A stretch of 32,000 nucleotides of DNA from Nostoc sp. PCC 7120 = FACHB-418 (GCF_000009705.1 NC_003276.1:330001-362000); one strand, 5' to 3'. Positions 1,883-19,971 are shown, counted from the first letter of the stretch. The notes: generated by a model from the sequence alone, not told the origin. Numbers and translations are program-made.

Positions 1883-3298
1883 GGTTCTTCCGGTAGTTTT
1901 ATGGTGTTTATTAGAATTGACTTGATTTTAATAACTTATAATTTAGTGATATCAATGCCTATAAGATAGATTACATAGGCATTTAGTAAATATCAAGCAT
2001 AGTTAAAGAACTCTAAAATTATCATCTATATTATAATATAGTAAAGTTTTAGGCGATCGCTATGAAGTTTCCAGTAGAACAAATCCTGAATCTTCCCGAT
2101 ATGAAAGTATTAGATTTTCAAGAACTTGAAGGTGAAGAAATAATTATAACGATAGAAAAAAGTGTGAACTATTCGACTTGTCCTTGGTGTGGTCAAATGA
2201 CTCACAGTATACATCAAAATCACTGGCGAATAATTCATGATTTACCGTGGAATAAAAAACCAGTGTTATTAAAAATAAATCGTCGGCAATTTAAATGTCA
2301 TAAGTGTAAAAAAGTATTTAGCGAACAACTAGACTTTGTAGATAAAAGTAAAGGATATACTAAAAGATTAGCGACCGACATAGTTCAACAAGTATTAAAT
2401 AGTAATATCCGGAGTGTTGCCCAAAGAAATGGATTAAGTGATGAAGAAGTAGAATCAATGTTAAAAAAGCAAGTCTCGCACATATTAAACATTAACCTAA
2501 GTCAGGTAAAAAAGTTAGGTATAGATGAAATAGCTTTAGTTAAAGGAAAAGGAAACTACTTAGCAATATTAGTGGATTTAGATAGTCATAAACCAATTGA
2601 GATAGTGCAATCAAGACGAATAGAAGATATTCGTGAAGTACTTGTCAGTTGGGGAGTTGAGATACTTAATCAAATTGAAGAAGTGAGCATTGACCTCTGG
2701 TTGCCTTATAAAAATTTAGTAGAAGAGTTAATGCCAAATGCTAATATAACTGCTGATAGATTTCATGTAATGAAACAAGTAAATGACGAATTAGATACTA
2801 TGCGTAAAGCTGAAAAGAAAGCAGCTATATCGCTAGATAATAAATCAGAAAAAGAGCGAATATTAGAGGCATTGAATAAGAGTAAATATGCGATTATTAA
2901 AAATGAAGACTCTCTAAATGAAAAGCAAAGAGAAAAATTAAAATCTGTGCAAGAGGTGTCGCCAAATCTCGCCAAAATGCACTCACTTAAAGAACAATTT
3001 CGAGATATATTTGAAACAACTAAATCCTGGGGAGATAGTATAATAAAACTATTGGATTGGATGTATGATGCACTTTCATATTTCCCGAAAAGTATAGGTA
3101 CAATAGTTAGATGGTTTGGTGAAATAGTCGGTTATTTTGACGGAAGAACCACAAGTGGTGCTGTAGAAGGAATTAATAATAAACTCAAGTTAATTAAAAG
3201 ACTTGGATATGGCTTTCGTAACTTTACCAATTTCAGATTACGCAGTTTGTTAAACTGGCATTTTACTATTAATTCTCCATAAAATTAACTGAAGAACC
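1883..3298 (+). mobile_element. ISL3-family insertion sequence (~1.4 kb)
   Basis: Terminal inverted repeats are GGTTCTTCCGGTAGTTTTATGG (1883-1904) and the reverse complement of 3277-3298, GGTTCTTCAGTTAATTTTATGG (19/22 match). The GGxTCTTC start is typical of ISL3. They enclose a single transposase ORF. I could not identify a clean 8-bp target duplication. Confidence 0.8.
2062..3282 (+). CDS. ISL3 family transposase
   Basis: N-terminal zinc-finger region (CPWCG...H...FKCHKCKKVF). DDE-ISL3 motifs LGIDEIALVKGKGNYLAILVDL, SIDLWLPYKN and ADRFHVMKQVNDELD. Characteristic C-terminus GINNKLKLIKRLGYGFRNFTNFRLR. Confidence 0.9.
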   Translation: MKFPVEQILNLPDMKVLDFQELEGEEIIITIEKSVNYSTCPWCGQMTHSIHQNHWRIIHDLPWNKKPVLLKINRRQFKCHKCKKVFSEQLDFVDKSKGYTKRLATDIVQQVLNSNIRSVAQRNGLSDEEVESMLKKQVSHILNINLSQVKKLGIDEIALVKGKGNYLAILVDLDSHKPIEIVQSRRIEDIREVLVSWGVEILNQIEEVSIDLWLPYKNLVEELMPNANITADRFHVMKQVNDELDTMRKAEKKAAISLDNKSEKERILEALNKSKYAIIKNEDSLNEKQREKLKSVQEVSPNLAKMHSLKEQFRDIFETTKSWGDSIIKLLDWMYDALSYFPKSIGTIVRWFGEIVGYFDGRTTSGAVEGINNKLKLIKRLGYGFRNFTNFRLRSLLNWHFTINSP

Positions 3299-4191: not shown

Positions 4192-5419
4192 ATGATTAGG
4201 CACAGTAGACATACTAGTGAATCTTGGAGAGCTTTACCGTGGAAGAAATTCCGCCGTAACCTTTTCCGCCTTCAAAAGCGCGTGTACAAAGCGGTTCTTG
4301 TTGGAGACAAGCGGAAAGCTAGGTCACTTCAAAAGCTTATTCTTAAATCCACCTCGGCTCGATTCCTGGCAATAAGACAAGTATCTCAGCTAAATGCTGG
4401 CAAAAAGACGGCAGGTATTGATGGCAAAAAATCCCTCTCATTTGAAGAACGCTTCAACCTTGAAGAACTACTGAGAATGAACAGTGGAAATTGGAAGCAT
4501 CAAGGACTACGGGAAATCCCCATCCCCAAAAAGGACGGGACTACCAGAATTCCCCGAACAGGGTACACCTCAAGGGGGAGTGGTTAGCCCAATATTAGCG
4601 AACATCGCACTCAACGGGATTGAAAGTATTCACCGATCCAAAGCCAAAGGGCAAATCATTGAGCCATCAGTCCGATACGCTGACGATATGGTAATTATAC
4701 TAAAACCCAAAGATAACGCGATAGAGATACTTGAAAGAATCAGCGAGTTTCTCCGCAAACGCGGAATGCAAGTAAGCCAAAAGAAGACCAAAATCACCGC
4801 CGCGACAGATGGGTTTGATTTCCTCGGCTGGCACTTTAAAGTCCAGAAAAACGGCAAGTTTAAAAGCACCCCTTCAGTGGACAACTTCAAAGCTTTCCGT
4901 AAGAAAGTAAAACACATCGTCAACAACTCGAATTATGGTTCTATAGTCAAAGCCCAAAAGCTTTCCCCAATAGTTAGAGGCTGGAGGAACTACCACAAGT
5001 TCTGTAAGATGGATGGGTCAAAGCATTCCCTTTGGTTCCTAAACCATAGAACCTACACGGTATTCACAAAGGAATCAAAACATACACGCCAATCTAGCGA
5101 AAAGCTAATTAAAAAGGCGTTCCCATTAGTTCCTAACTCCGAAAACAAACACGTTATGGTTCAAGGAATAAAATCCCCCTATGACGGAAACCTGACCTGC
5201 TGGAGCAAGCGTAACAGTAAGCTTTACGATGGTCACACCTCTAAAGCTCTCACAAAGCAAAACCATAAATGTGCATCCTGTGGTCTGAAGTTCATCGGTG
5301 AAGAACGGGTTCACCTACATCACCGAGACGGAAATCATGACAACTGGAAACCAAATAATCTTGAAGCATTACATGAGTCATGCCACGATTATCGGCATAT
5401 GAGCAAAACCGAAAGGTAA
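4192..5419 (+). pseudogene. Group II intron reverse transcriptase/maturase/HNH protein, disrupted by an internal deletion plus frameshift
   Basis: The N-terminus WRALPWKKFRRNLFRLQKRVYKA...GIDGKK...IPKKDGTTR (RT domains 0-1) is in one frame (4192-4587). The sequence then resumes in another frame (4484-5419) at GTPQGGVVSPILANIALNG and VRYADDMVII (RT domains 4-5). About 120-140 aa normally between these (PLGIP..., SYGFRP...) is missing. The maturase region and the HNH motif (CASCG...HLHHRDGNHDNWKPNNLEALHESCH) are present. Confidence 0.8.
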
Positions 5420-5428
5420 GAACATCGG

Positions 5429-5462
5429 GAGCCGTGTGCAGCGAAAGTTGCACGCACGGATC
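5429..5462 (+). ncRNA. Group II intron domain V
   Basis: GAGCCGTGTGCAGCGAAAGTTGCACGCACGGATC is 34 nt and has the AGC triad, a GAAA tetraloop and the 2-nt AC bulge. All pairs are canonical except G3 opposite A32, where the consensus is a G-U wobble. Confidence 0.8.
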
Positions 5463-5693
5463 TAACAGAGAGGGACGGGGAATAATATCCCCTCTCGACT
5501 CTAACCTACGGTGAAGATGTGGGATGGCGAATACGCCGTTGGGTTACAACACCTAAAGTCTTACGATTAATCGCCTGCTGAATGTGAGCAGGACTTTGGA
5601 CAAAAAGAAGTCCAAATATGTATCTGCTGGAATGACAATACACGAACTACTTTTCCCTTTTTACGGAATGTTAAAAGTAAGGTCGAATTCACG

Positions 5694-6458
5694 TTAGATA
5701 AGCAGTTTTGTAGACATTTTTTCCAGTTTAATTACTTTAAGTAGATTTTTCCAGTCTTCAGCCACCCCTAAATCCTGGGAACCTGTAAGGAGCAGTTCTG
5801 CTAGCGTTGTCAAAGCATCGTACCAAATACCGTTTTTTGCGTAGATGGAGGCTTGTTCCTGTGGTAACAATTGTTTAAATTCATCACGTAATGCGGCATC
5901 CAAATTCACACGTTGCACCCAGCCTTCTACATAATCCAATGTCGCTGATTGGTTAGGGTTACATACAACTCTAACTTTGAAGAACCAGTGATATGGCTTG
6001 TTAGTTTCTAGGAAAGCCGTAGTCTTTTGTAGTTGCACTCGAACAATTCCAGGTACTGGGGGTACTGAAATATCTGCGCGATGGATTGTTTTATTTTGAT
6101 CGGTTTGTAAAACAAATTCGATCGCCTGAATGGAAGATTGATTATAGGGAACATAGAACCAAAAGCTGGGCTGTTCTACACTAGTTAAGCCCCACACCTG
6201 AGTAATTGTGGTTTCTCCTGCACCCTGATTCAAGCGTTGTTCATAGCTTGGAACAAGAGCGGTTAAAGGCAAATCCAGTGCAGTACAATCTCCTCGTGAG
6301 GCTCCTTCGCCTCGGTTCCCTGGTAAACCGCGATCGGGTGGTGGCGGTGGTGGGTTAAAGCGAATTGGTGCCGATTTTTGGGATAAGGCTGGCGAAGTGC
6401 TAAAACAGTTGATCAAAATTACACTGAATGCAATTAGTGAAGCTAGTCGCTGAAGCAT
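5694..6458 (-). CDS. Secreted DUF928-like protein
   Basis: Signal peptide MLQRLASLIAFSVILINCFSTSPALSQ, then PPPPPPDRGLPGNRGEGASRGDC, LTALVP, PSFWFYVPY and YHWFFKV..VC motifs that I recognise as the cyanobacterial DUF928 family. It lies 104 nt downstream of, and co-oriented with, the CHAT-CHASE2 gene. Confidence 0.7.
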   Translation of the reverse strand: MLQRLASLIAFSVILINCFSTSPALSQKSAPIRFNPPPPPPDRGLPGNRGEGASRGDCTALDLPLTALVPSYEQRLNQGAGETTITQVWGLTSVEQPSFWFYVPYNQSSIQAIEFVLQTDQNKTIHRADISVPPVPGIVRVQLQKTTAFLETNKPYHWFFKVRVVCNPNQSATLDYVEGWVQRVNLDAALRDEFKQLLPQEQASIYAKNGIWYDALTTLAELLLTGSQDLGVAEDWKNLLKVIKLEKMSTKLLI

Positions 6459-6562
6459 AATTTTTAATACTCGCCAAAGGCGAGAAACAAGCTACGTAAT
6501 TTGTAATTAACAAGCGTTTAAAGTCATCTCTATTTTTTAGTAATCACAAAAATATGTGTAGT

Positions 6563-8908
6563 TTACGCAGAGCGGGGAAAATATCTCGTAAAGTAGGCAA
6601 TTAGGATAATACTACTAATGAGGGCGATCGCAGAGGGAATCAGTGGTATCCAAGTGCTGTACTGAATTAAAACAACAAAGCATATTCCGTAGAGGCTGGC
6701 GATCGCGATTGAAGTTACTATTCCTAAATAGAACAATGGCCGAATGTACCAAGCCAGTAAACTCCCTGTTAACGACCATCCCCAAATCCAAATTGTTTCT
6801 TGCCAAACAGACCAAGCCCAGATGAGCGATCGTCCATCGAGGGCTGCACTTAACAATTGACTAATCATTTGCGCTTGCAGAATAACACCTGGTATTTTCT
6901 CGATCGCACCTTGATTTGTGATATTGGGTGTAAATGAGTAATCTTCAAAGCTTTCGGCTGTTGTACCAATCAGAACAATTTTGTTTTTGACTGTATTAGC
7001 ATTTATTTTTCCTGTGAGTACTTCTGTTAACGATACCTGCGGCACAAATTCCTGTAGCGATCGCTCTTTACGATAATTCAACAAAATTTGGTGTCCTGAA
7101 GCATCGATGCCTTGATATCCACTAGTGTGTGCTGTTAGTGGTTTAAAAGCTGTCTTGCCGAGTTTCCAAGCACCATCATTGGTAAATTTTAGAGAAATAT
7201 TGTGAGCAGCCAAGTAACGCAGTGCTACTTGTACGCTGAAAGCATATTGGGCTTTGCAAGGTGAAGAGGGCGGCGGTGTTAATGCTAATAAATGGCGACG
7301 GACAATGTTATCTGAGTCGATTACTAAATCACTAAAGCCTAAGCGTTCTGGTGTTATTTCCGGCGGGGGTTTGATGCCGGGATGCTCAGATTGGGCATCG
7401 CTAACTCGACAGACTGCACTTAGATGTTTACTGTTATATAGATGCTTTGCCAATTCTGGTAACTCTGGCTTAACAGGGCGATCACGGTAAATATCTAATC
7501 CTATTGATTGTGGTTGATATGCCTCTAATTTTTTCAACAATTTCAACAGTGATTCATCTGAGAGAGAACCCTGGGGTTTTTCTTGAGACTGTGATTGCAC
7601 ATCTTCTTCGGTGATCGTCACAACCAACAAGCGAGAATCAGGCTGTTCATCTGGGCGTAGTTGCTGCAAGCGATCGAACGCTTGTAACTCCAATCCTTGC
7701 AGCATTCCTACGTATCTTACACCTATGACAAAAAGGGCGATCGCCAAACTCGCGCAACCAAGCCAAAGAAAATGAGGGACAGACAAACTCTTCCCGTAGG
7801 CCCCTTTGCTCTTTTGCCCCTCCATCTCTTTACCTATCAACTCCTGCCAACTAGCTGGTATCTCTGCGAGATTTTGATAAATCACAGGTAGCCAACTTGC
7901 ACAGGGAAATTGTCCATCCAATCCTTGCAGTCTTTCTCTAGCTTCGCGGACTGCTAGATAAAGCGATTTGCCTCCAGCGTATGCTTGCAAAAAATGCTTG
8001 AGAAATGTTTGCGCCACCCGGTCTGGAACAGGTTCGCGCATGACAATCAACTGGGGAATCTGTAAAGAAGCAAATTCTCGCGCCAGTCCTAAACCATCAC
8101 ATGAATTAAAAATTGCTAACTTTAAACCGCGCTCAACTGCTTGCCTGAGAGCATACTTTAACTGACTAATTGTCAAACTTTCTGTTTGGTTAATGTAGAT
8201 TTGACCTGTTTCTCCTGTACTTTGGCTTGAACTATGTCCAGCAAAAAATAGAATATCCCAATTTTGCTGCCAGAGATTATCTGTTAAGTCTTCACAAGAT
8301 GGTTCTACAAGAAAGTGAATTTTTGTATTAGGCAGTTGTTCTAGAAGTAAACGGTCTGTGCCTATATTGATTCCATGACTATCACCTAATAATGCCAAAA
8401 TTTTCACAGTTGCAGTTGATATTGGGGAAAATTCGACTTTTTCATAAATAGGCGTACTTAAGGCGATTTCTGCATTTGGATAACGTTCTATTAACTCCCA
8501 AAGATGCCAAGGGAGTTTTTGAAGTTGATAGTCTTGAGTTTGCAAGATTACCCGAATTATGTCAGATGTTTGAAGCTTTTCGAGCCATTTTTCGCGGATC
8601 GGGCGGAAAGATTCTGATTGTAACCAATAGTTAAAGCAGTCGCGTAATTGTTGAGCTGCTTCAAGACACTGTTGCTCATTTGCAATTAACAGCTTTTGTT
8701 TTGTTAGCCCTTTAGGACGAGCGGCAAAATCTAAGCTACGATAAATCGATTGCCAACAATTAAAATTTAACGGTAATTCTTTCTCTGGCGGAAGTTCGCC
8801 GATAACTTCACTTTCAGGGCGACTATTTTCTTCTCCAATCTGGAGAGTAACTGGAAACCCAGTCTCAAAGCTCCCTTTGCCAAATTTCAAAACTATCAAT
8901 TTAGTCAC
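6563..8908 (-). CDS. CHAT (caspase-fold) domain fused to a CHASE2 membrane sensor
   Basis: GTG start preceded by GGAG. The N-terminal ~370 aa carry a CHAT His/Cys dyad context (DILFFAGHSS ... LAIFNSCDGLGLA). A TM helix follows near residues 385-405 (HFLWLGCASLAIALFVIGV). Next is a ~300-aa CHASE2-like region (LELQAFDRLQQLRP, LLVVTITEEDV, GLDIYRD, DSDNIVRR). Three C-terminal TM helices close the protein, with no C-terminal output domain. Confidence 0.8.
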   Translation of the reverse strand: MTKLIVLKFGKGSFETGFPVTLQIGEENSRPESEVIGELPPEKELPLNFNCWQSIYRSLDFAARPKGLTKQKLLIANEQQCLEAAQQLRDCFNYWLQSESFRPIREKWLEKLQTSDIIRVILQTQDYQLQKLPWHLWELIERYPNAEIALSTPIYEKVEFSPISTATVKILALLGDSHGINIGTDRLLLEQLPNTKIHFLVEPSCEDLTDNLWQQNWDILFFAGHSSSQSTGETGQIYINQTESLTISQLKYALRQAVERGLKLAIFNSCDGLGLAREFASLQIPQLIVMREPVPDRVAQTFLKHFLQAYAGGKSLYLAVREARERLQGLDGQFPCASWLPVIYQNLAEIPASWQELIGKEMEGQKSKGAYGKSLSVPHFLWLGCASLAIALFVIGVRYVGMLQGLELQAFDRLQQLRPDEQPDSRLLVVTITEEDVQSQSQEKPQGSLSDESLLKLLKKLEAYQPQSIGLDIYRDRPVKPELPELAKHLYNSKHLSAVCRVSDAQSEHPGIKPPPEITPERLGFSDLVIDSDNIVRRHLLALTPPPSSPCKAQYAFSVQVALRYLAAHNISLKFTNDGAWKLGKTAFKPLTAHTSGYQGIDASGHQILLNYRKERSLQEFVPQVSLTEVLTGKINANTVKNKIVLIGTTAESFEDYSFTPNITNQGAIEKIPGVILQAQMISQLLSAALDGRSLIWAWSVWQETIWIWGWSLTGSLLAWYIRPLFYLGIVTSIAIASLYGICFVVLIQYSTWIPLIPSAIALISSIILIAYFTRYFPRSA

Positions 8909-9490
8909 GTCGCTTCACTCCGAATTAAAAATCTCCATTGATAAATTTAGTTGTTCAGTATCCTTTTATTTTGCAGTCAGAATAAAAATTATCTTTCAAC
9001 AATTGTAGATAGACCGTTATTAGATATCATCTACAGTTCTCTTATTTATGCTGTCAATATCGAGATTTTAGTTTGCAAGTTGTTTGAAAAGTGCTGGCTG
9101 ATGTGTCAAAAATTTAGATCCGTCATTATCTTCCTTAAAAAGGAGGACTTTGATTTATTTCCCCCTTTTTTTAAGGCTAGGGAGGATTTAAGATTTTGGA
9201 AACACGCCCTACCTCTGTTTTTGAAGCTACGGCGATGTACACAAGTCCTTTAATGCATTGACCTGCAACTCACGTTATGTTAGGCAATAAGTATAAAAGA
9301 TTAAGGCGTTGCTGAGTATAGAAATATGAATTTGTATCATGCAGAGTCGCAGAGACTAAGAGTTGAGAAGAATTAAATTTTAAATTTCAAATTCAGCAAT
9401 GCCAAAGATAAGTTTGGTCAATTTCAGGAAAATGTCACTCAAGGAGAGTAGTTTAAATTTATTCGCTGTTTATATAAAAATTAAAGTCTC

Positions 9491-10705
9491 ATGCATTTAA
9501 GGCAAAATATTATCGAAATTTTTTCCACCTTTATGCTATTTAAAGGTGATAGTTTTGACCATTGGGTTACTGATTCTAAGCTGCGACGGAGTATGCACAA
9601 TTGTGTAGAAGAGTCTTCTAAGCAAGAGTCAGAAATATTTTGGGCTATTTACTGGCATCGGATTTGGCAAACGCAAGCAAGTCCAATTGCAGTTGCTCAT
9701 ATTGCAGCCTATTTACAGGAAGTTTGTTACTGGGTTGCGAGAAAAATGAAAATGAATGTACTAGGTCAACATTCTGTCGCTGATTTTTTCCAAACAGCGA
9801 TCGCTCGTGTTGATAAAGTTATGAAAGGCTTTAACCCACAATTGGGTTCAAATTTGAAAATCTATGCAGAATACACCTTTAGCAATCTGATTAAAGATTT
9901 GTTACGCAAGCGTCAAGAAGTTGATATCTGTACTGACTGGGGATTGCTGCACAAACTGAGTCAAAAGCGTTTGGTAGAATCTCTCAAACAGGCAGGTTAT
10001 CCATCCCAAATCATTGAGCGTTATGTTCTAGCTTGGAGTTGTTTCTTGCAATTTTATGCGCCCCACGATGTTGCAACTGCTCACAAACTCATTAAACCAG
10101 ATAATTTGACATTACAGGCGATCGCACAACTTTACAACACCGAACGTCTCAGTCAGCTAAGTTCTCCCAGTCCAGCCTGCACTCCAGAAAGTTTGGAAAC
10201 TTGGTTAGTTACTTGTGCTAAAGCAGTGCGTTCCTTTCAATATCCCACCTCAGTTTCTCTGGATATTCCTGCACCTGGACAAGAAACGGGCGAATTACTC
10301 GACCGACTGACGAACAATTTTCAAGACTCGGTGTTAGATGAAATAATTATCCAAGAAGAAGTAGAAAACATTGCGTTGCGGAGTACAGAAATTAATCGAG
10401 TTTTGAGCGATGCGCTGGCAAAATTAGATCCCCAAGCTCAAGTACTTCTGCAAACATACTACAAGCAAGAATTAACCCAGCAGCAAATTGCTCAACAGCT
10501 AGGAATCAAACAATATACAGTTTCTCGGCAACTAACTAAAATCAAAAAGACATTACTAGTAGAGTTAGCCCAGTGGAGTCAAAAAACACTGCATATTCCG
10601 GTGAAATCTGACGTAATCGACAGTATGAGTAATTCTCTAGAAGAATGGTTGATTGCTCAGTATCGCCCTCTCATTTTGTTGTCGCCAGTGGAGTCTTTAA
10701 AATGA
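9491..10705 (+). CDS. Sigma-70 family-like protein (atypical, 404 aa)
   Basis: Region 2-like segment GFNPQLGSNLKIYAEYTFSNLIKDLLRKRQ. C-terminal region 4 helix-turn-helix LLQTYYKQELTQQQIAQQLGIKQYTVSRQLTKIKKTLL. The gene is divergent from the CHAT-CHASE2 gene across 580 bp. Confidence 0.7.
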   Translation: MHLRQNIIEIFSTFMLFKGDSFDHWVTDSKLRRSMHNCVEESSKQESEIFWAIYWHRIWQTQASPIAVAHIAAYLQEVCYWVARKMKMNVLGQHSVADFFQTAIARVDKVMKGFNPQLGSNLKIYAEYTFSNLIKDLLRKRQEVDICTDWGLLHKLSQKRLVESLKQAGYPSQIIERYVLAWSCFLQFYAPHDVATAHKLIKPDNLTLQAIAQLYNTERLSQLSSPSPACTPESLETWLVTCAKAVRSFQYPTSVSLDIPAPGQETGELLDRLTNNFQDSVLDEIIIQEEVENIALRSTEINRVLSDALAKLDPQAQVLLQTYYKQELTQQQIAQQLGIKQYTVSRQLTKIKKTLLVELAQWSQKTLHIPVKSDVIDSMSNSLEEWLIAQYRPLILLSPVESLK

Positions 10706-11853
10706 TTTTTGATGTCACCTCAATTCCTGAACAGCTCACCTTGGAAATTTCGTTATCATCGCAAACCCTAGAATTACAAGGTTTTTCCACATCAGGCGCA
10801 CGCTGGCGAGGTCGTCTTAACCAAATGTGCTTAGATGCATTTTTACTGTGGTTGAGAGAAGAAGTTGAAAATGCCAGAGTTTGGACTCAAACAGCAGCGT
10901 TACCTAGCTTTTGGGAATTTGTAAATGGAACTGCGATCGCTTGTGAAGAGATAAGATTAGTATTGATTCCCACAACGGCAATAGATACAGACGAATTGCG
11001 CGTACCCCAAGAATGGGTAGATATTCCCGATTGGGTTGCTGATTATTATATTGCAGTACAAGTTAATCCTAATGGTGGCTGGGTGACAATTTGCGGATAT
11101 ACCACCCATCGTCAATTGAAAACTAAAGGGGTTTATGATGCAAGCGATCGCGCTTACTGTTTAGATGAAAATGATTTAATTAAAGACATCAATGGTTTGT
11201 GGATTACCCGACAACTTTGTCCAGAGGAAATTTTACGTGAGTCAGTTGCACCTTTACCGACATTACCTTTAGCACAAGCAGAAAACTTACTCGAACGATT
11301 AGGTAATTCTGAAGTAGTCTTTCCGCGTTTAGCAATTCCCTTTGAACTTTGGGGTGCATTATTAACACATGGCGGCTGGCGACAAGGGTTGTACGAACGA
11401 CGACAAGGGCTGCCTGAACAGTGGTCAATTCAGGAATGGTTGCAAGCAGGAGTATCGAATTTAGCACAGCAGCTTGGTTGGGGAATGACTAGATTGCAAT
11501 TAGCTGCTCGTGGTCTGCGAAGCCGAGAAACTGATGAATCAAGTGTCTCTTTGTCCCGGCAGTTGACACTTGCTGGTCAAGCTTACGAGTTGCGCGTATT
11601 TCAAAGAGGTAACTTAGAAGACAATATATGGCGGTTTGAATTACGCAATGCAAATCCAGATGCAATGATTCCAGCAGGATTTAGACTCAGACTGTTAACC
11701 GAAGATTTACAGCCTTTTGTTAATAATGAGGATACAGCAACAGAAGCGATATCTCAGCTTTATATCGATGTAGAGTTGGAGCCAGGAGAGGGTTTAGTAT
11801 GGGAAATTGAGCCAACACCGGATGACTATGATAGAGAAATTTTACGGTTTTGA
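10702..11853 (+). CDS. DUF1822-like protein (cytoplasmic, 383 aa)
   Basis: I chose the ATG at 10702 because it forms an ATGA overlap with the sigma-like stop codon (10703-10705); the longer ORF from 10645 would overlap by 61 nt. There is no signal peptide or TM helix. Motifs such as RVPQEWVDIPDWVADYYIAVQVNP match my recollection of the cyanobacterial DUF1822 family, which usually sits next to a sigma-like gene. Confidence 0.65.
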   Translation: MIFDVTSIPEQLTLEISLSSQTLELQGFSTSGARWRGRLNQMCLDAFLLWLREEVENARVWTQTAALPSFWEFVNGTAIACEEIRLVLIPTTAIDTDELRVPQEWVDIPDWVADYYIAVQVNPNGGWVTICGYTTHRQLKTKGVYDASDRAYCLDENDLIKDINGLWITRQLCPEEILRESVAPLPTLPLAQAENLLERLGNSEVVFPRLAIPFELWGALLTHGGWRQGLYERRQGLPEQWSIQEWLQAGVSNLAQQLGWGMTRLQLAARGLRSRETDESSVSLSRQLTLAGQAYELRVFQRGNLEDNIWRFELRNANPDAMIPAGFRLRLLTEDLQPFVNNEDTATEAISQLYIDVELEPGEGLVWEIEPTPDDYDREILRF

Positions 11854-12062: not shown

Positions 12063-14129
12063 TTATAAGCGATTAACCGAACATGATATGACTCCTGACT
12101 CCTGAATTCTCATTTCATTTAGTACTTGTTGAGCCACAAGCTGAACATCACCTCGCTTATCTACTAGCCATCTCTGAGCCTCGACAATTGGCTGTTGATT
12201 TTCAGCTAAAGTTGTTTTTGCTTGGGTGTTTGTCTCATTTCCTATCTCTTCATCCAGCGTCACCCATTGGGTAATAACTGCTCTTTGACGCAATGGTTCA
12301 CTGGGACTTAAAGGCATTCCTCCACGTCCGGTGACAACAAAACTATTACTTTGCCCACGTCTAGGAGTGCAGCCCTGAGCGATTTGCTGTGATGCATCAA
12401 CCAAATTTACAGGTAGTTCCACTAATCCCCGACTAGGGTCAACATCGGGTGTGTTAAGTTCTATACTGCCACTCAATTCCGGAGTTTTACCTCTAGCGGT
12501 AATGTCACTTGCGGAAGTACGTTCATTCTGCGACTGGGTGCCGAAGATGCCGATAGCTTTTACTCTGACCCGACCGCCACGAAAGTCATTGGAAGTGGCT
12601 GTGATATCGCTATTTTCAGATGCGACTAAGAATTTAGTGTCAATATTAACATCACCCCCAATCACATTTTCGCCAGTAGCGTCAGCAGTAATGTTGCTAT
12701 TTCGACGCAATAATACCAAATCTTTTACACGCAAGGTAATAGTTGCCTGTGTTTGATTAGGATCAGTATTGATGCTGCGAGTGTTAGCCGTCAAAGTGCC
12801 ATTGTCCAAATGAACAGAACTCGCATTGATAATTAAACTTCCTGCATTCCCTATTCCTCGACTTCTAACAAACATTCCAGCTCTATCCTTAACTAAAAGC
12901 TCACGGGTGTTTATAATCAAATTCCCCGCTTTACCTACACCAAATGTAGTAGCACTTATTGTTGCTCTATCTTTAAGGACTAATACCGGAGTGTTAATTG
13001 TCACCGAACCAGCCTTTCCTGCTCCAGAAGTTTGAGTAGATAAGATAGTATCAATCGGAAATTCTACAGGAGTGCCAATCAATTCCACGGAATCTAAGGC
13101 ATTTATTGTCAAATCTCCTCCCGAACCCGTGTCAAAGACTTGAGTTACTATAGATGCTCCTCCCTTCATAATTAATTGTTGGACATTAATGCTGACATTT
13201 CCACCCGGTGCTGAAGTGAAAGTATTTGCTCTGATGACAGAGGTTTCCAAATTTAACTGTGAGGCTCGGAAGGAAATTGCACTACTCTCTTGTTGACTTT
13301 GAATGTTGCTATCTTCTTCAGGAGTAATATTGACAAAACTTCTAAAAATTTGAATATCTCTAAAGTTGCTGACATTTTGATAGTTTAACGTCCAGCCTTG
13401 GTGTGTTTGATTGAGATTGACCTGATTAACTCCAGTGACACTACCTAATTCAATTCGTCCCCCTGGAGCGTTTAGAAAAGCTCTCTCTATGGTTACATTG
13501 CCACCGACAAGAGCTAAAGTTTTACCTAAAGGTACTCTGAGTCCCTGCCCCTCCTCGCTACTCAATTGTCCACCAATCCCCTGCACGCGAATATCTCCAG
13601 GATTCTCCCCAAATTGTAAGCCTGTAGGAATATTTATAGTTAATAAGGGTGTTTTTTGTGGAGCCGTTGCACTAAACTCAAAGCCATCAGCAAATTTCAA
13701 CCTATTAGCAGTGCTACCGACAAAGGAACCGCCAATATCCAACCGTGCATTCTGCCCAAAAATAATTCCATTAGGATTAATTAGAAATAGATTGGCTGTA
13801 GCGTTAGCGCGGATTAATCCGTCAATGTTAGAAACAGAGCCACCTGTTACCCGACTAATAATATTTTGAATATTTGTAGGATTATTAAAGAAAGCTGTAC
13901 CGCTAGTAGGCACAGAAAACTCTTGAAAACTGTGAAAAAGATTACTTCCTGCTTGAGTTCCTCTCTCAATAATGCGGGTGTTCCCCTCTGTTGTGATATT
14001 GGAATTAATTGGGAGAGTAGTATCCGGGGTGATTTGAGCTAGTGAGCAGTTTGACCAAAAAACTGTAGTGCTACTTATAGTAATTCCTAGTCCTTGCAGC
14101 CAATACCAATGTATAGATATCCCAGACAT
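12063..14129 (-). CDS. Filamentous-hemagglutinin N-terminal (TPS) domain beta-helix exoprotein, TpsA-like
   Basis: Signal peptide ending SLA/QITPD. Classic TPS domain: GTQAGSNLFHSFQEFSV, NIISRVTGGSVSNIDGLIRANATANLFLINPNGIIFG, ARLDIGGSFVGST. Degenerate beta-helix repeats follow. Conserved C-terminal CTPRRGQSNSFVVTGRGGMPLSPSEPL motif. GGAGAG precedes the ATG. Confidence 0.85.
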   Translation of the reverse strand: MSGISIHWYWLQGLGITISSTTVFWSNCSLAQITPDTTLPINSNITTEGNTRIIERGTQAGSNLFHSFQEFSVPTSGTAFFNNPTNIQNIISRVTGGSVSNIDGLIRANATANLFLINPNGIIFGQNARLDIGGSFVGSTANRLKFADGFEFSATAPQKTPLLTINIPTGLQFGENPGDIRVQGIGGQLSSEEGQGLRVPLGKTLALVGGNVTIERAFLNAPGGRIELGSVTGVNQVNLNQTHQGWTLNYQNVSNFRDIQIFRSFVNITPEEDSNIQSQQESSAISFRASQLNLETSVIRANTFTSAPGGNVSINVQQLIMKGGASIVTQVFDTGSGGDLTINALDSVELIGTPVEFPIDTILSTQTSGAGKAGSVTINTPVLVLKDRATISATTFGVGKAGNLIINTRELLVKDRAGMFVRSRGIGNAGSLIINASSVHLDNGTLTANTRSINTDPNQTQATITLRVKDLVLLRRNSNITADATGENVIGGDVNIDTKFLVASENSDITATSNDFRGGRVRVKAIGIFGTQSQNERTSASDITARGKTPELSGSIELNTPDVDPSRGLVELPVNLVDASQQIAQGCTPRRGQSNSFVVTGRGGMPLSPSEPLRQRAVITQWVTLDEEIGNETNTQAKTTLAENQQPIVEAQRWLVDKRGDVQLVAQQVLNEMRIQESGVISCSVNRL

Positions 14130-14400: not shown

Positions 14401-15903
14401 TTATCTAACAGATTTTAAGTTTTCAGCTTTATCCACTAAGAAATCAGTAAAGATACTCATAACTGTGCGTTGACGCAATTTAATATTGCCATTAATAGAC
14501 ATCCCTGATTGCAATAGAATTTGGCGTTGATTAATCAGTAACTTCTGTCCATTGAGGCGTACTTTTGCAGAAAAACGCCAGAAATTATAAACTTCGTCTG
14601 GAGGTAGAGCATCAGAACCAATTTCAATTAACTCGCCTTTTATATCACCGTACTCTTGAAAAGGAAAAGAATCAATCCTCACATCTACTTGTTGCCCTTC
14701 TTGCACAAAGCCAATGTCACGGTTGGTGATGTAAACTTTAGCAACTAAGTTATCACTAGGAACGAGTTTAAGAATTGTTTCGCTGGAGTTGACAACAAAT
14801 CCTGCTGTTTGAGCTTTGAGTTCAAACACAGTTCCATCTACGGGAGCAGCAATTTTTTGATATTTCAACGTTTGTTGTGCTTGAGCTAACTCGCTGTCAA
14901 TCTCTGCAATTTGACTATTAATCTCATAAAGTCGTTTCTGATTTTCAATAATTACTTTAGTTAATTGACTATCAATTTCTGCAATTCTTTTATCATTATC
15001 TGTAATTTTAGCGAGTAAGTCTTCTTGAGACAGTGCCGCAGTATTCCGAAATTTTTCATTTGCTTGGGTAACGGCTAACTGTAATCGTTGCTTTTCTTGA
15101 GTTAGGCGCATTACTTCTGCTTGTTTCACATTTACTTCTTGCTCCTGTTTGAGGATTTGCATTCTGGGGTATGCACCCTCTTTATCTAGCATTTTGAGGT
15201 TTTGATAAATTTGGCGATTAATTACTAACACATCTTGAGCGCTACCTAATTGCGCTTGAGTTTGGAGTAATTGTTGTTGTGTCTGTTGCGTTTCTAACTT
15301 AGCTGTTGCCAAGCGTGATTCTAATTCTTGCTGGCGATTTTGCAAGCGTAACTGTTGTTCTCTTGTGAGTATTACTCCGGTAGTTGTGCCGTTTAATTGG
15401 GCGCGATATAATTCGTTTTCGGCAAAGATAGCAGATCGACTTTTAGTTAATAAAGCTAGTTCTGGTTGTATTTTTAAAATAGCTGTTTGCTGTGCTATTT
15501 GCTGCTGTGAAATATTTCCTTGCAACTGACGGCGGTAAAAATCATTTTCTAGTTCTAAAGACTGTTTTGATTGCAACTGAGCCGCGCGACTTTGTTTCAA
15601 GGAAGTAAGTTCTGCCTCAGAAGTTGTTTGTTCTAAGCTAACGAGTATTTCACCTTTTTTGACTCGTTGACCATCTTTAACTAGAATCTTTTTAACAACA
15701 CCGTTAACCGGAGCCTGAATTTCTTTAACTGCGCCTTGTGGTTCTAGTTTACCAGTAGCATGAACTGATTCTTCAATTTTAAATACTGATGCCCAAATTA
15801 TTGTAAAGACACTAACTCCAACGATAGTCCAAGCGATCGCCCTTGACCAAGTAGAAGTTTGTTGTAAAAGAACTGGTTGATCAAATTTGTATTGAATATT
15901 CAT
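14401..15903 (-). CDS. HlyD-family periplasmic adaptor (type I secretion membrane-fusion protein)
   Basis: N-terminal TM helix (WSRAIAWTIVGVSVFTIIWASVF). Lipoyl-like GKLEPQGAVKEIQAPVNGVVKKILVKDGQRVKKGEIL. A long Q/L-rich coiled coil. C-terminal beta-barrel segment (IAAPVDGTVFEL..., GMSINGNIKL). Confidence 0.85.
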   Translation of the reverse strand: MNIQYKFDQPVLLQQTSTWSRAIAWTIVGVSVFTIIWASVFKIEESVHATGKLEPQGAVKEIQAPVNGVVKKILVKDGQRVKKGEILVSLEQTTSEAELTSLKQSRAAQLQSKQSLELENDFYRRQLQGNISQQQIAQQTAILKIQPELALLTKSRSAIFAENELYRAQLNGTTTGVILTREQQLRLQNRQQELESRLATAKLETQQTQQQLLQTQAQLGSAQDVLVINRQIYQNLKMLDKEGAYPRMQILKQEQEVNVKQAEVMRLTQEKQRLQLAVTQANEKFRNTAALSQEDLLAKITDNDKRIAEIDSQLTKVIIENQKRLYEINSQIAEIDSELAQAQQTLKYQKIAAPVDGTVFELKAQTAGFVVNSSETILKLVPSDNLVAKVYITNRDIGFVQEGQQVDVRIDSFPFQEYGDIKGELIEIGSDALPPDEVYNFWRFSAKVRLNGQKLLINQRQILLQSGMSINGNIKLRQRTVMSIFTDFLVDKAENLKSVR

Positions 15904-15936
15904 AATAAATGGGGATGGGGCAGGGGGGAATTGTAC

Positions 15937-15956
15937 GGACGCAATTTATCGCGTCT
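15937..15956. repeat. Degenerate second copy of the AGACGCGATTTATCGCGTCT hairpin
   Basis: GGACGCAATTTATCGCGTCT matches 11994-12013 at 18/20 positions. It overlaps the last three codons (E-T-R) and the TAA stop of the ABC exporter gene. Confidence 0.4.
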
Positions 15957-18873
15957 CTTGTTGTTGATATAGGCAGTAGTAATAACCTTTACGTGCCATT
16001 AATTCTTCATGAGTGCCTTGTTCTACTACAGCACCTTGTTCCATCATGAGAATGATGTTGGCATGGCGAATTGTGCTGAGGCGATGTGTGATGAAAAATA
16101 CTGTTTTTCCTTGAAATGCTGTTGCCAGATTACGGCCAACTTGGGCTTCGGCGTTGTAGTCTAAGGCGCTGGTGGCTTCATCAAGGATAAGTAATTGGGG
16201 GTTTTGGAGGACGGTACGAGCGATCGCAATTCTTTGGCGTTGTCCCCCAGAAAGCCCCGAACCACGTTCGCCTACACGGGTATTGTAGCCGATTGGCAAG
16301 TCCATAATAAAGTCGTGGGCAAATGCTACCTTTGCGGCGGCAATAATTTCTTCATCACTGGCTTCGGAACTTCCCAAGGCAATGTTTTCCCGCACTGTCC
16401 CGTCAAATAATAAGGTATCTTGTAACACCATTCCAATTTGACGGCGTAAGGAATAAAGTTCAACCTTGGCGATATCATAGCCATCAATCAAGATTTTGCC
16501 AGATTTGGGTTCGTAAAGGCGCGGTAGTAATTTTAGCAATGTACTTTTACCAGAACCGCTTTGTCCAACAATGCCAATAAAAGAGCCAGCCGGGAAATCT
16601 AAGTTAATATTGGAAAGTTGTAATGGCCCGTGTTCCAAGAAGCTGAAACTGAGATTTTCATACCGGACATTACCTTGAATGCTAGGCATGAGAATATTTT
16701 GTGTCTCTGTTTCTGTTTCTTGAGGAGAATCTAAAATTTCAGCAAGGCGTTGCAGAGATAAAGCTGTTTCTTGGAAGTTCTGCCATAGTTGCATTAAGCG
16801 TAATAGTGGACTAGTTACATAACCTGCAAGGATGCGGAAGGCGATGAGTTGTCCTAGAGTGAGTTGTTGATTGAGGACGAGATAAGCACCTACCCACAGC
16901 ACTAACATACTGGAAAACTTGTTAAGAAAGCTGCTAAAAGAACTAGCAGTAGTTTGAGTAGAGACTGTTTTGAAACCAGCGCTGATATAACGAGCATAAC
17001 GTTCTTGCCATTGCCAACGCGATCGCATTTCTAAATTTTGCGCCTTGACTGTCTGCATCCCTCCCATCACTTCTACTAAGTAAGATTGAGTTTCAGCATT
17101 GCGTTCGGCTTTTTCTTGTAATTGTCGCCGCATTAAAGGCGATACTATCAAGTTAAGCAAGCCAAACAAGGGTACTGTTACCAATGCTACTAAGGTGAGA
17201 ATTGGGCTATAAAATGCCATAACCACAATGTAGACTACAGAAAACACTGCATCCATCACCACAGTTAGGGCTGTACCAGTCAAAAAAGAACGGATATTTT
17301 CTAATTCGTGAATGCGCGTTGCCAATTCCCCCACAGGGTGACGCTCAAAATAAGATAATGGCAGACGCAACAAGTGGTTAATTACCTCTGAACCCAGAGA
17401 AAGATCAATGCGGTTAGTGGTATCCACAAATAAATGAGTGCGAACTGTGGTAAGTATGGCTTCAATTACCGCTATTACGAGCAAAAATATCCCAAAAACT
17501 TCCAAAGTATCAGGGCTATTACCAACTAATACTTTATCAATAATTACTTGTGTGACTAAAGGATTTACCAGCCCGAAAATTTGAATGACAATCGAAGCAA
17601 TTAGCACTTCAATAAGTACTTTACGATGGCGTTTGATTGCAGGTACAAACCAACTCAAATTAAACCGCGACTTGGGAGTATTTTTAGTAGTTTGCAGGAG
17701 CAAAACTTCTCCTTCTTGTCCCCAGTTTTCAGCAAAGTCTTGCAATTTGTAGCGCAACAGCCCCATCTCTGGAACAGCAACAAGTAACTCTTGATTGCTA
17801 TTTTTGTAAATAATTGCAAAACTATCTTGCCAAGCAATCATTATTGGTAATTGCAAGCGACTAAGCGCAACGGCGGGAACTTTCACCATTTGCGTTGTTA
17901 ATCCCATTAATTCTGCGGCGGCTGCACAAAATTGTAGAGATATACTACCTTTGTGTTCCTGTTGCTTTGTCAGAACTCGCCGCAATACATCTCGACGCAA
18001 GGGGATATTAAAGTACTGACTCAACATGACAAAGCAAGCTAAAGTACCATCTAACGGGCCTCTACCTCGACAATAAGGATACTTCTTTTGTTTAACTTGG
18101 GTGCTTGATTCCTCTGTAATGGTAATTTCGGAAGCGTAGGGAATCTCTGTGGGTAAAAGTGTTGTAGATGTGGGATTTTCTCCAAATAAAGACTTCGGTA
18201 ACCCCACTACACGCATATTTGTATTAAATTTCAACGTGGGATTAACATCATCTAATTCTAGGCGACTTCCTACAGAAAATTCTGGATTAAAATTACTACT
18301 GACTAACCATAATAATTCTGAATCTAATTGGTTGTGAGATATTTTACGTGCGGGGAATGTTTGAATAACAGCTGCTTCCGTTGCAGCTTGAGCAAGTTTA
18401 ACTAAATTTTTGCTCCCATCTGCGCGACGGTTGAGTTCTTCTGTGAGCAGTTCGTATACTTCTAAAAGTGTAATCTGCTGATGCAAGGCTTGAGTAAAAG
18501 CTGACTCTTGCTTGAGTAATGCTTGAAAATCAGCAATGGGTAGATTAATCGTGATAACTTCAGTAGAAGCGATCGCGGTTTCACAAGCAATCCCCCGCAC
18601 ATAACTTAACCAACCCAAAACCTCACCTGGTGAAAGCAGCTTAAGTGTCACAGGATTCGGTTTGTGAGCATTATAGCCTAACAGTCGAGCTTGCCCTTCA
18701 TAGATAATACTAATTTGAGCAGGCATAGCTTCTTGAGTCACTATCACCTGTCCAATACGGTAGCGTAAAAATTTCGCCTTACTGAGCCAACTTTCTAAAA
18801 TACTTTCTGGCAAGTTATTGAATGGAAACAAGTTTGCAATTAATTCTTGAAGATTTACTGTTGTATTTGTCAT
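15946..18873 (-). CDS. ABC exporter with an N-terminal cyclic-nucleotide-binding-like domain and a C39-peptidase-like domain (bacteriocin/T1SS type)
   Basis: Residues ~20-130 are CAP/cNMP-like (IGQVIVTQEAMPAQISIIYEGQARLL...LSPGEVLGW). A C39-like domain follows (YCRGRGPLDGTLACFVMLSQYFNIPL...PIMIAWQDSFAIIY). There are six TM helices. The NBD has Walker A GQSGSGKST, signature LSGGQRQRIA and Walker B LLILDEATSALD. Confidence 0.9.
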   Translation of the reverse strand: MTNTTVNLQELIANLFPFNNLPESILESWLSKAKFLRYRIGQVIVTQEAMPAQISIIYEGQARLLGYNAHKPNPVTLKLLSPGEVLGWLSYVRGIACETAIASTEVITINLPIADFQALLKQESAFTQALHQQITLLEVYELLTEELNRRADGSKNLVKLAQAATEAAVIQTFPARKISHNQLDSELLWLVSSNFNPEFSVGSRLELDDVNPTLKFNTNMRVVGLPKSLFGENPTSTTLLPTEIPYASEITITEESSTQVKQKKYPYCRGRGPLDGTLACFVMLSQYFNIPLRRDVLRRVLTKQQEHKGSISLQFCAAAAELMGLTTQMVKVPAVALSRLQLPIMIAWQDSFAIIYKNSNQELLVAVPEMGLLRYKLQDFAENWGQEGEVLLLQTTKNTPKSRFNLSWFVPAIKRHRKVLIEVLIASIVIQIFGLVNPLVTQVIIDKVLVGNSPDTLEVFGIFLLVIAVIEAILTTVRTHLFVDTTNRIDLSLGSEVINHLLRLPLSYFERHPVGELATRIHELENIRSFLTGTALTVVMDAVFSVVYIVVMAFYSPILTLVALVTVPLFGLLNLIVSPLMRRQLQEKAERNAETQSYLVEVMGGMQTVKAQNLEMRSRWQWQERYARYISAGFKTVSTQTTASSFSSFLNKFSSMLVLWVGAYLVLNQQLTLGQLIAFRILAGYVTSPLLRLMQLWQNFQETALSLQRLAEILDSPQETETETQNILMPSIQGNVRYENLSFSFLEHGPLQLSNINLDFPAGSFIGIVGQSGSGKSTLLKLLPRLYEPKSGKILIDGYDIAKVELYSLRRQIGMVLQDTLLFDGTVRENIALGSSEASDEEIIAAAKVAFAHDFIMDLPIGYNTRVGERGSGLSGGQRQRIAIARTVLQNPQLLILDEATSALDYNAEAQVGRNLATAFQGKTVFFITHRLSTIRHANIILMMEQGAVVEQGTHEELMARKGYYYCLYQQQETR

Positions 18874-18935
18874 CTCTTACTTTGCATCTTTTGCAGTTAG
18901 TTTCTTTACTATTCCAAATTCTATTTGACAGACTA

Positions 18936-19727
18936 CTAAGCCATTTCTTGCACCTGGTCAGATTTAGGATTAATTCCCATCCAGATTTTCTCTTCTGGCG
19001 ACAATTGATTTAATTGTTGTTGAAACCAATCTTCAAAATTTTCTTGCAGCAATCTTTGGCGCATAAAATCGTCTAACTGGGCAGGAATTAGTTTTTCTAC
19101 ACGCACAATTACCCATGTATTTCCAAAAGCTACGGGTGGTTGAACAACACCAACTTGGCTTGTGTAAAGTAGTTGAGCAAAATTCGGAGTAATACTACCA
19201 AGTTCTACTGGGCCAATAATGCCGCCTCTATCAGCTTCTGCACCTTGAGAATATTTTCGCGCCAGTTCAGCAAAAGAATCTTCTCCTTCTGCTATTCTGA
19301 AGAATAACTCATTGACAACGCTCTTATTTTCAGTTTGAATTAAAGAATAAATAACTCGATCTAAATATTTTTTGCGTTTAAGAAAGTAAGATTCTAGCTG
19401 ATGTCTCCAATTTATTTGTTTGAACTTTTCTACTCTCAGCTTTCGGGTTGCTAAAAGTTTTAATTTTTCCGCATTCAAACCATAACGTAAGCACCAATCT
19501 TTGATTTTTTCTGCGGTTGTCAAATCCCAATGCTGATAAAATTGATCTAGAGCATGAGATATTTCTGCTTGTGTGCAGGTGATTGGTGCAATAGCAGATT
19601 CGATTATCCTCTGTGATAACAATTGCGGAATCAGGTTGTAACTAGCTAAAAAAGGGATAATTTCTTTAGGTATATTGGCATAATCTAACTCAGGTATTGC
19701 GCTGCTTATTTGTAAAACTTTACTCAT
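18936..19727 (-). CDS. Parvulin-type peptidyl-prolyl cis-trans isomerase (PrsA/SurA-like)
   Basis: C-terminal rotamase domain: FAELARKYSQGAEADRGGIIGPVELGSITPNFAQLLYTSQVGVVQPPVAFGNTWVIVRVEK. The gene ends 62 nt upstream of, and is co-oriented with, the ABC exporter gene. Confidence 0.8.
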   Translation of the reverse strand: MSKVLQISSAIPELDYANIPKEIIPFLASYNLIPQLLSQRIIESAIAPITCTQAEISHALDQFYQHWDLTTAEKIKDWCLRYGLNAEKLKLLATRKLRVEKFKQINWRHQLESYFLKRKKYLDRVIYSLIQTENKSVVNELFFRIAEGEDSFAELARKYSQGAEADRGGIIGPVELGSITPNFAQLLYTSQVGVVQPPVAFGNTWVIVRVEKLIPAQLDDFMRQRLLQENFEDWFQQQLNQLSPEEKIWMGINPKSDQVQEMA

Positions 19728-19956: not shown

Positions 19957-19971
19957 TACCACTTACCAGTA

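Follow-up and report, generated by a model that had tools for sequence, protein, structure and literature searches.

A CHAT-CHASE2 Sensor-Protease Module Linked to DUF928, Sigma Factor and DUF1822 Genes in Nostoc sp. PCC 7120: Gene Context and a Proposed Route to Sigma Activation

Locus Organization

The DNA studied here, referred to as the window, is a stretch of 32,000 nucleotides (nt) from Nostoc sp. PCC 7120 = FACHB-418 (NC_003276.1:330001-362000), and all positions are counted from its start. It carries genes for a membrane-bound CHAT-CHASE2 sensor-protease, a DUF928 protein, a sigma-70-family factor and a DUF1822 protein (Table 1). These four genes are one conserved unit, as indicated by their linkage across genomes and metagenomes. 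An original prediction, made from the sequence alone, had proposed that they form an undescribed signalling system in which an envelope cue activates the protease and the protease acts on the sigma/DUF1822 pair. Three of the four genes and the general logic had already been published as a prediction (PMC8195603).

Gene coordinates and sizes of the original prediction were borne out by the list of open reading frames (ORFs), as were the 104-nt spacing between the CHAT-CHASE2 and DUF928 genes and the ATGA overlap; the divergent region between the CHAT-CHASE2 and sigma genes was measured as 582 bp. The longest ORF of the DUF1822 gene opens at 10645, and the ATG at 10702 yields the product of 383 amino acids (aa) annotated by NCBI. 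This ATG shares ATGA with the sigma stop codon, which suggests translational coupling. For both DUF1822 and the sigma factor, a protein with 100% identity is annotated on a plasmid of Anabaena sp. FACHB-709. All domain assignments, namely CHAT, CHASE2, DUF928, DUF1822 and sigma, were confirmed by profile hidden Markov model (HMM) searches against Pfam, with TIGR02937 used for the sigma factor.

Characteristics of the CHAT-CHASE2 and DUF928 Proteins

The sensor-protease is composed of an N-terminal domain (aa 1-175), a CHAT caspase-fold domain (aa 176-345), a first transmembrane (TM) helix at ~384-406, a periplasmic CHASE2 domain and three TM helices at ~697-777. The Pfam matches were 8.4e-65 for CHASE2 (aa 390-716) and 1.4e-15 for CHAT (aa 196-332); a PDB sequence search with this protein gave no match. 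The catalytic dyad proposed earlier is intact, with His225 (FFAGHS) and Cys270 (FNSCdGLG) unchanged across 35 homologues. The hydropathy window scan detected no hydrophobic segment in aa 1-374 and marked two strong C-terminal stretches, at ~724-777, to which a Trp-rich helix at ~697-718 was added by reading the sequence. The topology anticipated for this protein, a cytoplasmic CHAT domain followed by a TM helix, CHASE2 and three TM helices, was upheld in this way, and the basic C-terminal residues agree with a protease in the cytoplasm and CHASE2 in the periplasm.

The N-terminal domain is conserved, with G17, W95, P133, W134 and W137 invariant in the 35 homologues, and it always precedes CHAT directly. 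Both domains are constant among homologues and the C-terminus is variable: in relatives CHASE2 is replaced by nSTAND1+GUN4, Peripla_BP_6 or cyclase+CHASE2, the commonest sensors of the caspase module being extracytoplasmic (CHASE2 and periplasmic-binding domains). In position and behaviour the N-terminal domain matches the EACC2 domain of PMC8195603, a putative identity that is given by architecture. A site of autocleavage in the linker between CHAT and the first TM helix was also considered and rejected, as the alignment of the 35 homologues held no conserved candidate residue.

The DUF928 protein (PF06051, 1.5e-56) has a signal-peptide-like segment at aa 1-26 in the hydropathy scan, as had been predicted, and two Cys residues, C58 and C166, that are invariant in homologue alignments. 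Both features fit a periplasmic, disulfide-bonded protein. Its N-terminal tail is rich in Pro (PPPPPPDRGLPGNRGEGASRGDC); at the start of the mature protein (aa 32-58) this conserved Pro/Gly/Arg-rich tail reads FNPPPPPPDRGxPGxRxxGASRGxC and closes at the first invariant Cys. The tail looks like an extended segment, possibly cleavable or acting as a tethered ligand.

Characteristics of the Sigma Factor and Its Upstream Region

The 404-aa protein matched TIGR02937 (sigma70-ECF, NCBIfam; ECF, extracytoplasmic function) with 140 bits against a cutoff of 42.9, and aa 67-359 covered the whole profile. In Pfam, Sigma70_r4 was matched at 8.5e-9 (35 bits) and Sigma70_r2 with 23.5 bits, slightly below the cutoff of 24. 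The AlphaFold2 (AF2) model is all-helical, with a predicted local distance difference test score (pLDDT) of 73, and ranks 1-39 of its Foldseek matches were sigma factors or sigma/anti-sigma complexes. The TIGR02937 score, the all-helical model and the top Foldseek matches together settle the identity of this protein as a sigma factor.

In the model, sigma-2 (~44-146) is followed by an extra helical domain (149-250, pLDDT ~90), a disordered linker (258-282), sigma-4 (283-367) and an extra C-terminal helix. Like ECF (group 4) sigma factors, the protein has sigma-2 and sigma-4 regions recognised by family models; unlike the minimal plan of that group, of ~200 aa with a short linker between both regions, it has 404 aa, an additional domain and extensions at its N- and C-terminus that are conserved in the homologue alignment. 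Close homologues are labelled 'group 3/4 sigma-70' by NCBI sources. The first 26 residues are strongly conserved, with R4 and F11-S12-T13-F14 invariant, and have a pLDDT <50, which suggests that this segment may fold on a partner; it is a candidate for a partner-binding or autoinhibitory segment. Both the sigma and the DUF1822 families gave >1000 matches at E up to 1e-5, and among the 120 best matches every named source was cyanobacterial.

The sole conserved part of the divergent region, in an alignment of 8 Nostocales loci, is a block of ~85 nt immediately 5' of the sigma start, in which the sigma promoter and 5' untranslated region probably lie. The core of this block was matched 15 times in the window against 10.1 ± 3.4 expected, which is not beyond chance, and a generic promoter and terminator scan gave background level.

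Characteristics of the DUF1822 Protein

The DUF1822 protein (PF08852, 1.1e-126) has no TM or hydrophobic segment in the hydropathy scan, and Pfam detected in it no anti-sigma domain and no TPR family. Its AF2 model (pLDDT 86.8, predicted template modelling score 0.84) starts with an alpha/beta N-domain (aa 12-160) and a helical middle part (165-257), which a disordered loop (268-279) joins to a C-terminal beta-sandwich (282-383); as modelled, the protein is a mixed alpha/beta fold and not a TPR protein. Foldseek comparison of the model with the PDB gave nothing at E <1e-3, the best match having E = 5e-3 and TM-scores lying at ~0.13-0.2; the sub-threshold matches were of the Ig/FnIII-like type, on the C-terminal beta-sandwich, plus a weak one with MepB. 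The DUF1822 profile matched no PDB sequence at E up to 10. A PD-(D/E)xK-like N-domain was considered and dropped for want of support.

Within the disordered loop (pLDDT <50), Arg273 is kept by 93% of 67 homologues, whose identity reaches down to ~33%, and insertions of variable length sit immediately after it. The surrounding motif is hydrophobic-R-S in the CHAT-linked DUF1822 proteins (Arg in 45/47) and A-R-G in the clade linked to C14-like caspases. Peptidases of clan CD, such as metacaspases, orthocaspases and separase, accept Arg or Lys at P1, and for this reason Arg273 is proposed as a candidate cleavage site. In three loci in which DUF1822 accompanies sensors other than CHASE2 (L030, L050 and L056), an insertion of ~60-70 residues with a HEAT/PBS-lyase-like look lies right after the loop Arg (…TEDEETRWAAAESLWTI…).

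Conservation of the Gene Linkage

To assess the linkage of the four genes, two sets of loci were collected. Set 1 came from a DUF1822-seeded scan with one genome per species and contained 57 loci (identity 33%-92%), 56 of which were used for counts; by record title nearly all were cyanobacterial, with a few unclassified metagenome-assembled genomes (MAGs) and one MAG labelled Tatlockia. Set 2 came from a DUF928-seeded metagenome scan and contained 80 loci; a first alignment of 15 DUF928 sequences was too divergent as scan seed, and a 7-sequence alignment was used instead. Neighbouring genes were scored with HMMs built from set-1 homologues.

The sigma gene lies directly upstream of DUF1822 on the same strand in 52/53 set-1 loci with room for it. 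Their stop and start codons overlap by 4 nt in 15/54 loci, and in 43/54 the two genes either overlap or are at most 60 nt apart. A gene for the N-terminal domain plus CHAT is present in 35/56 set-1 loci, 28 of them with CHASE2. In set 2, 51 of the 56 loci with room have a same-strand CHASE2 gene directly upstream of DUF928. The gene order of Nostocales is divergent, as in the window, and in other orders it is colinear: sigma, DUF1822, CHAT-CHASE2 and DUF928. Since the linkage survives this rearrangement, it appears to be under selection. Several genomes carry more than one copy of the module in the DUF1822-seeded scan. The view that the four genes form one unit, put forward in the original prediction, holds in both sets.

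The linkage splits in two: sigma/DUF1822 go with the caspase module whatever its sensor, and DUF928 goes with CHASE2 whatever the output. DUF928 is downstream of 24/25 caspase genes with CHASE2 versus 0/6 with another C-terminus (set 1, p = 1e-5), and it is also found 3' of Pkinase-CHASE2 and Trypsin_2-CHASE2 genes. This context fits the proposal that DUF928 works with CHASE2, of which it looks like a dedicated partner. On the other hand, sigma/DUF1822 accompany 22/36 caspase-CHASE2 loci versus 0/9 CHASE2 loci with a non-caspase output (set 2, p = 0.0015), and the pair is kept beside N-terminal-domain plus CHAT proteins that bear nSTAND1+GUN4, Peripla_BP_6 or cyclase+CHASE2.

In six set-1 loci without a CHAT gene, a C14-like caspase adjoins sigma/DUF1822 (Table 1). 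Four of these proteins have a Pfam Peptidase_C14 match, the two others are homologous to those over ~380 residues, and their C-terminal halves have no Pfam match. Among the observations on gene context, this exchange of CHAT for a C14-like caspase beside the same pair speaks most strongly for a partnership at protein level; together with the retention of the pair on exchange of the sensor, it fits the earlier proposal that the protease works with sigma/DUF1822. One of the six loci (L035), in the MAG labelled Tatlockia sp. (a Legionellales bin), carries a trio of sigma (561 aa), DUF1822 and C14-like caspase genes, which points either to a rare occurrence outside the cyanobacteria or to a mistake in binning.

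Wider Genomic Neighbourhood

The unit is larger than the four genes of the original prediction: a gene for a two-partner secretion (TPS) exoprotein, TpsA-like, and one for a TPR-CHAT protein belong to the same recurrent neighbourhood. The TPS gene recurs near the module in both locus sets. In 28 of 35 neighbourhood TPS proteins a C-terminal motif C-x(10-16)-F-x-x-TGRGG[LM]P was found ~90 residues from the end, TGRGGMP in the window protein; this motif could be a processing or recognition site. In L092, L101, L041 and L052 a TpsB gene (POTRA_2 + ShlB) lies between the TPS and TPR-CHAT genes.

A signal-like N-terminus is present in 32/41 TPR-CHAT neighbours, including the window copy, and by this feature the protein is probably an exported second caspase-fold protease. 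Its gene lies <=4 kb downstream of DUF928 in 27/54 set-2 loci, mostly convergent and usually followed by a TPS gene, and immediately after DUF1822 in L012, L013, L024 and L025. The block of exporter genes between the TPS and TPR-CHAT genes of the window also accompanies the module in L004, L005 and L010; in the distant L030 (Roseofilum) most of the block is present, without the PPC gene. A linked peptide-export system may be encoded by this block.

A version with a Ser/Thr kinase as output was observed in five metagenome loci (L092, L094, L095, L100 and L104), in which Pkinase-CHASE2 and DUF928 genes are followed by convergent TPR-CHAT and TPS genes, and sigma/DUF1822 are absent. A gene of ~400 aa lies 5' of the kinase in all five; in L094, the one scanned, its product is FrhB/FdhB-like.

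The surroundings of the module are mosaic, with mobile elements. A group II intron lies ~190 bp past the DUF928 stop, and its overlapping reverse transcriptase (RT)/maturase ORFs are apparently frameshifted. Transposase genes of the ISL3 and IS66-like types and an IS605 OrfB/TnpB gene are also present. The first part of the window is the repetitive 3' end of a giant gene (~5300 aa) for a Calx-beta/Laminin_G protein, with tandem repeats of 27, 324 and 432 nt.

Table 1. Coordinates of the module, of its neighbours and of the C14-like caspase genes of related loci. Positions refer to the window unless a locus is given.
Feature	Coordinates	Strand	Size	Support or remarks
DUF928 protein	5694..6458	-	254 aa	ORF list; Pfam PF06051
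DUF928 Pro/Gly/Arg-rich tail	6290-6365	-		aa 32-58
CHAT-CHASE2 sensor-protease	6563..8908	-	781 aa	ORF list; Pfam
Divergent region	8909..9490		582 bp	ORF coordinates
Conserved upstream block	9405..9490	+	~85 nt	Intergenic alignment
Sigma-70-family factor	9491..10705	+	404 aa	ORF list; TIGR02937
Conserved sigma N-terminus	9491-9570	+		aa 1-26
DUF1822 protein	10702..11853	+	383 aa	Pfam PF08852
DUF1822 Arg273	11518-11520			Loop 268-279
TPS-domain (TpsA-like) exoprotein	12063..14129	-	688 aa	Pfam TPS 1.6e-75; TIGR01901 1e-25
TGRGGMP motif of TPS protein	12312-12332	-		aa 600-606
Exporter block	14401..20712	-		HlyD; ABC exporter with cyclic nucleotide (cNMP)-binding domain and C39 peptidase; peptidyl-prolyl isomerase (PPIase); PPC-domain protein
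TPR-CHAT protein	21072..23678	+	868 aa	Pfam CHAT 1.9e-57 and TPR; hydrophobic segment aa 2-31
3' end of Calx-beta/Laminin_G protein gene	1-1144	+		Repetitive
ISL3 transposase	2062..3282			
Group II intron	4192-5505	+		
RT/maturase ORFs	4192..4587, 4484..5419			
Rfam Intron_gpII match	5427..5505			59.6 bits
IS66-like transposase	27737..29317			
IS605 OrfB/TnpB gene	30060..31295			
C14-like caspases	L016:5187-7526, L020:5965-8331, L022:5286-7466, L035:11690-13918, L042:3382-5261, L043:11379-14432		~730-1000 aa	Adjoin sigma/DUF1822

Comparison with Previously Described Systems

Kaur, Burroughs, Iyer and Aravind (eLife 2021, PMC8195603) described proteins in which a constant EACC2 domain at the N-terminus is followed by a caspase domain and a C-terminus that varies, CHASE2 plus TM helices being given as an example; their genes lie adjacent to those for an ECF sigma factor and DUF1822. 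Their logic, presented as prediction only, leads from sensing through autopeptidase activation to sigma-mediated transcription. The constant N-terminal domain, the caspase fold with its His/Cys dyad, the variable sensor and the adjacent sigma and DUF1822 genes are all found here, and the system is therefore not undescribed, contrary to the original prediction. That paper calls DUF1822 a TPR protein, whereas the model obtained here is mixed alpha/beta with a helical middle and a beta-sandwich; it favours autoproteolysis, whereas the present analysis favours DUF1822 as substrate. Its text does not mention DUF928, TPS, hemagglutinin or an exported TPR-CHAT protein. In the literature search the term EACC2 was used in no other relevant paper, and no cleavage step was reported for this system in the literature found. 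What may be new is the proposed role of DUF928 as a CHASE2-specific partner, the association with exported TPR-CHAT and TPS/TpsB, the non-TPR fold of DUF1822 and its conserved loop Arg.

In the type III-E Craspase (PMC9825189), the TPR-CHAT protease Csx29 cleaves Csx30, a soluble protein that binds the ECF-type sigma RpoE encoded next door with a Kd of ~0.2 µM. Both systems have a CHAT protease switched by a sensor, and by analogy Csx29/Csx30/RpoE is an experimental precedent for the action of a CHAT protease on a protein that binds a sigma factor; the CalpL/CalpT system is a further precedent. The sensor of Craspase is the RNA-guided Cas7-11, that of the present system a membrane-bound CHASE2 domain on the same polypeptide as the protease. 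DUF1822 matched nothing by fold or sequence in the PDB library, which presumably includes the Csx30 complex structures. A PADLOC scan of six module proteins gave no match to defence systems or Cas effectors; the sigma factor had weak HTH-region matches (E ~5e-4 or weaker) to models of CRISPR-associated regulators, and it scored 29 bits against a cutoff of 100 with the III-E sigma family model (CAS_III-E_sigma). Neither a CRISPR repeat array nor cas genes were found in the window. This locus belongs neither to the type III-E CRISPR systems nor to the CalpL/CalpT one.

In the RseA/sigma-E and FecA/FecR/FecI systems an extracytoplasmic cue frees an alternative sigma factor via proteolysis. The layout of TPS/TpsB, periplasmic protein and inner-membrane sensor recalls trans-envelope cell-surface signalling of the FecA/FecR/FecI kind. 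Unlike RseA, a single-pass membrane anti-sigma factor beside its sigma, DUF1822 has no TM segment, and in place of the site-1/site-2 proteases of those systems a cytoplasmic caspase fold is fused to the sensor. From type Vb two-partner secretion the window has the N-terminal TPS domain of a TpsA, but not a cognate TpsB alongside.

The CalpL/CalpT/CalpS and SAVED-CHAT/PCaspase cascades of type III CRISPR systems (named in PMC12642450 and in the title of bioRxiv 10.1101/2023.06.23.546230) are similar. In them, a protease fused to a sensor has as its target either an anti-sigma factor or another, caspase-like protease. The two caspase-fold proteases per neighbourhood found here echo the relay from SAVED-CHAT to PCaspase. 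The sensors of those cascades bind cyclic oligoadenylates in the cytoplasm; the second CHAT protein of the present neighbourhood, with its signal peptide, would act in the periplasm. The earlier statement that none of the four families had an experimental role does not stand for CHAT, with roles for Csx29 (PMC9825189) and HetF (PMC8406250), nor for CHASE2, a phenotype being indicated by the title of a paper on Dgc2 (PMC10581220); for DUF928 and DUF1822 it was not contradicted by anything found.

Proposed Mechanism and Alternative Explanations

The interpretation to which a slightly better than even chance is given here is that of a sensor-protease-sigma module of the type described in PMC8195603, with CHASE2 and DUF928 as input, in which CHAT cleaves DUF1822 and the sigma factor is freed. 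CHASE2 would read a periplasmic or cell-surface cue together with the secreted DUF928, and the exported TPR-CHAT protein and the TpsA/TpsB pair, encoded alongside in many relatives, may generate or deliver this cue. The signal would cross the membrane to the N-terminal domain and the cytoplasmic CHAT protease, which would act on the co-translated sigma/DUF1822 pair; we infer that DUF1822 restrains the sigma factor, and the likeliest step would be a cut of DUF1822 after Arg273, in the disordered loop between its domains. The freed or activated sigma factor would then transcribe its regulon.

Several observations weigh against this interpretation. DUF1822 is like no known anti-sigma factor nor Csx30, in fold or sequence, and for this reason its role as inhibitor is a guess. 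The conserved Arg could serve binding instead of cleavage, the co-variation of its motif with the type of protease is confounded by phylogeny, and the specificity of CHAT is not predictable; Csx29 reportedly cleaves after Leu or Met, not Arg. About 15/56 sigma/DUF1822 pairs have no caspase gene in the available flanks, and the locus counts are uncorrected for phylogenetic relatedness. Alignment, repeat count and promoter scan revealed no sigma-dependent promoter common to the module genes in the window, so that inference of the regulon is impossible. No TpsB (POTRA + ShlB barrel) was detected among the window ORFs scanned, and no experimental study of the system, of DUF1822, of DUF928 or of this sigma subfamily was found in the literature.

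An alternative, held to be unlikely, follows the conflict-system view of PMC8195603: on sensing, the caspase protein would cleave itself, for example in the linker aa 345-384, and the released fragment of N-terminal domain plus caspase would be a broadly acting cell-suicide or immunity effector, with the sigma factor as a parallel transcriptional arm and DUF1822 as an adaptor. Autopeptidase activation was proposed for this architecture by analogy with EACC1 (PMC8195603), and EACC1 modules have since been reported to be activated by site-specific proteolysis (PMC12642450). STAND-NTPase variants (L030), the several paralogous modules per genome and the situation on a plasmid amid transposases, a TnpB gene and a group II intron are also in its favour. 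However, no defence model was matched in PADLOC, the linker between CHAT and the TM helix has no conserved residue that would suggest a cleavage site, and the very tight coupling of sigma and DUF1822 is left unexplained; moreover, the commonest sensors, being extracytoplasmic, are a better fit to sensing of the envelope or environment than to detection of intracellular invaders.

Alternative sigma factors are commonly encoded beside their target operons, and the sigma/DUF1822 pair might respond to some other input, with CHAT-CHASE2, DUF928, TPS and TPR-CHAT as its targets and no proteolytic link. In colinear loci all four genes could be one autoregulated operon, and the 15/56 pairs without a visible caspase neighbour are compatible with such a regulator and regulon. 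Nevertheless, the pair tracks the caspase and not CHASE2, DUF928 or TPS, being absent from all nine CHASE2 loci with a non-caspase output, and the replacement of CHAT by an unrelated caspase family in six loci is what a partnership of proteins, not of promoters, predicts. Together with the lack of a shared promoter motif in the window, this makes the explanation somewhat more doubtful than self-cleavage. As for a fortuitous adjacency of four unrelated neighbours on a mosaic plasmid, the flanking ISL3, group II intron, IS66-like and IS605/TnpB elements could be invoked, but the linkage is kept in 56 genome and 80 metagenome loci, in rearranged orders and at identities down to ~25-35%; contradicted by this synteny, coincidence is very improbable.

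The cleavage of DUF1822 by CHAT might also be the last step of a longer, trans-envelope relay with two caspase-fold proteases, a speculative extension that is held to be rather unlikely. The exported TPR-CHAT protease would process either a TpsA-like surface protein secreted by TpsB and bearing the conserved C-terminal motif C...F-x-x-TGRGGLP, or the Pro/Arg-rich tail of DUF928; DUF928 would pass the product to CHASE2, and CHAT would cut DUF1822 at Arg273, with release of the sigma factor.

Significance

The system is widespread in cyanobacteria and has so far been predicted only by computer analysis. Nothing in the locus would greatly surprise a specialist. Its host, Anabaena/Nostoc sp. PCC 7120, is a genetically tractable model organism, in which the predictions are directly testable. 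If the proposed module is confirmed, it would show that sigma factors are activated by way of a caspase-type protease outside CRISPR systems too, and it would provide functions for two DUFs and a handle on what CHASE2 senses. If the relay also proved to be true, it would represent cell-surface signalling of a new kind, in which a shared CHASE2/DUF928/TPR-CHAT/TPS input serves outputs that can be exchanged for one another (caspase plus sigma, Ser/Thr kinase or trypsin-like protease), and it would constitute the first defined ligand pathway for CHASE2.

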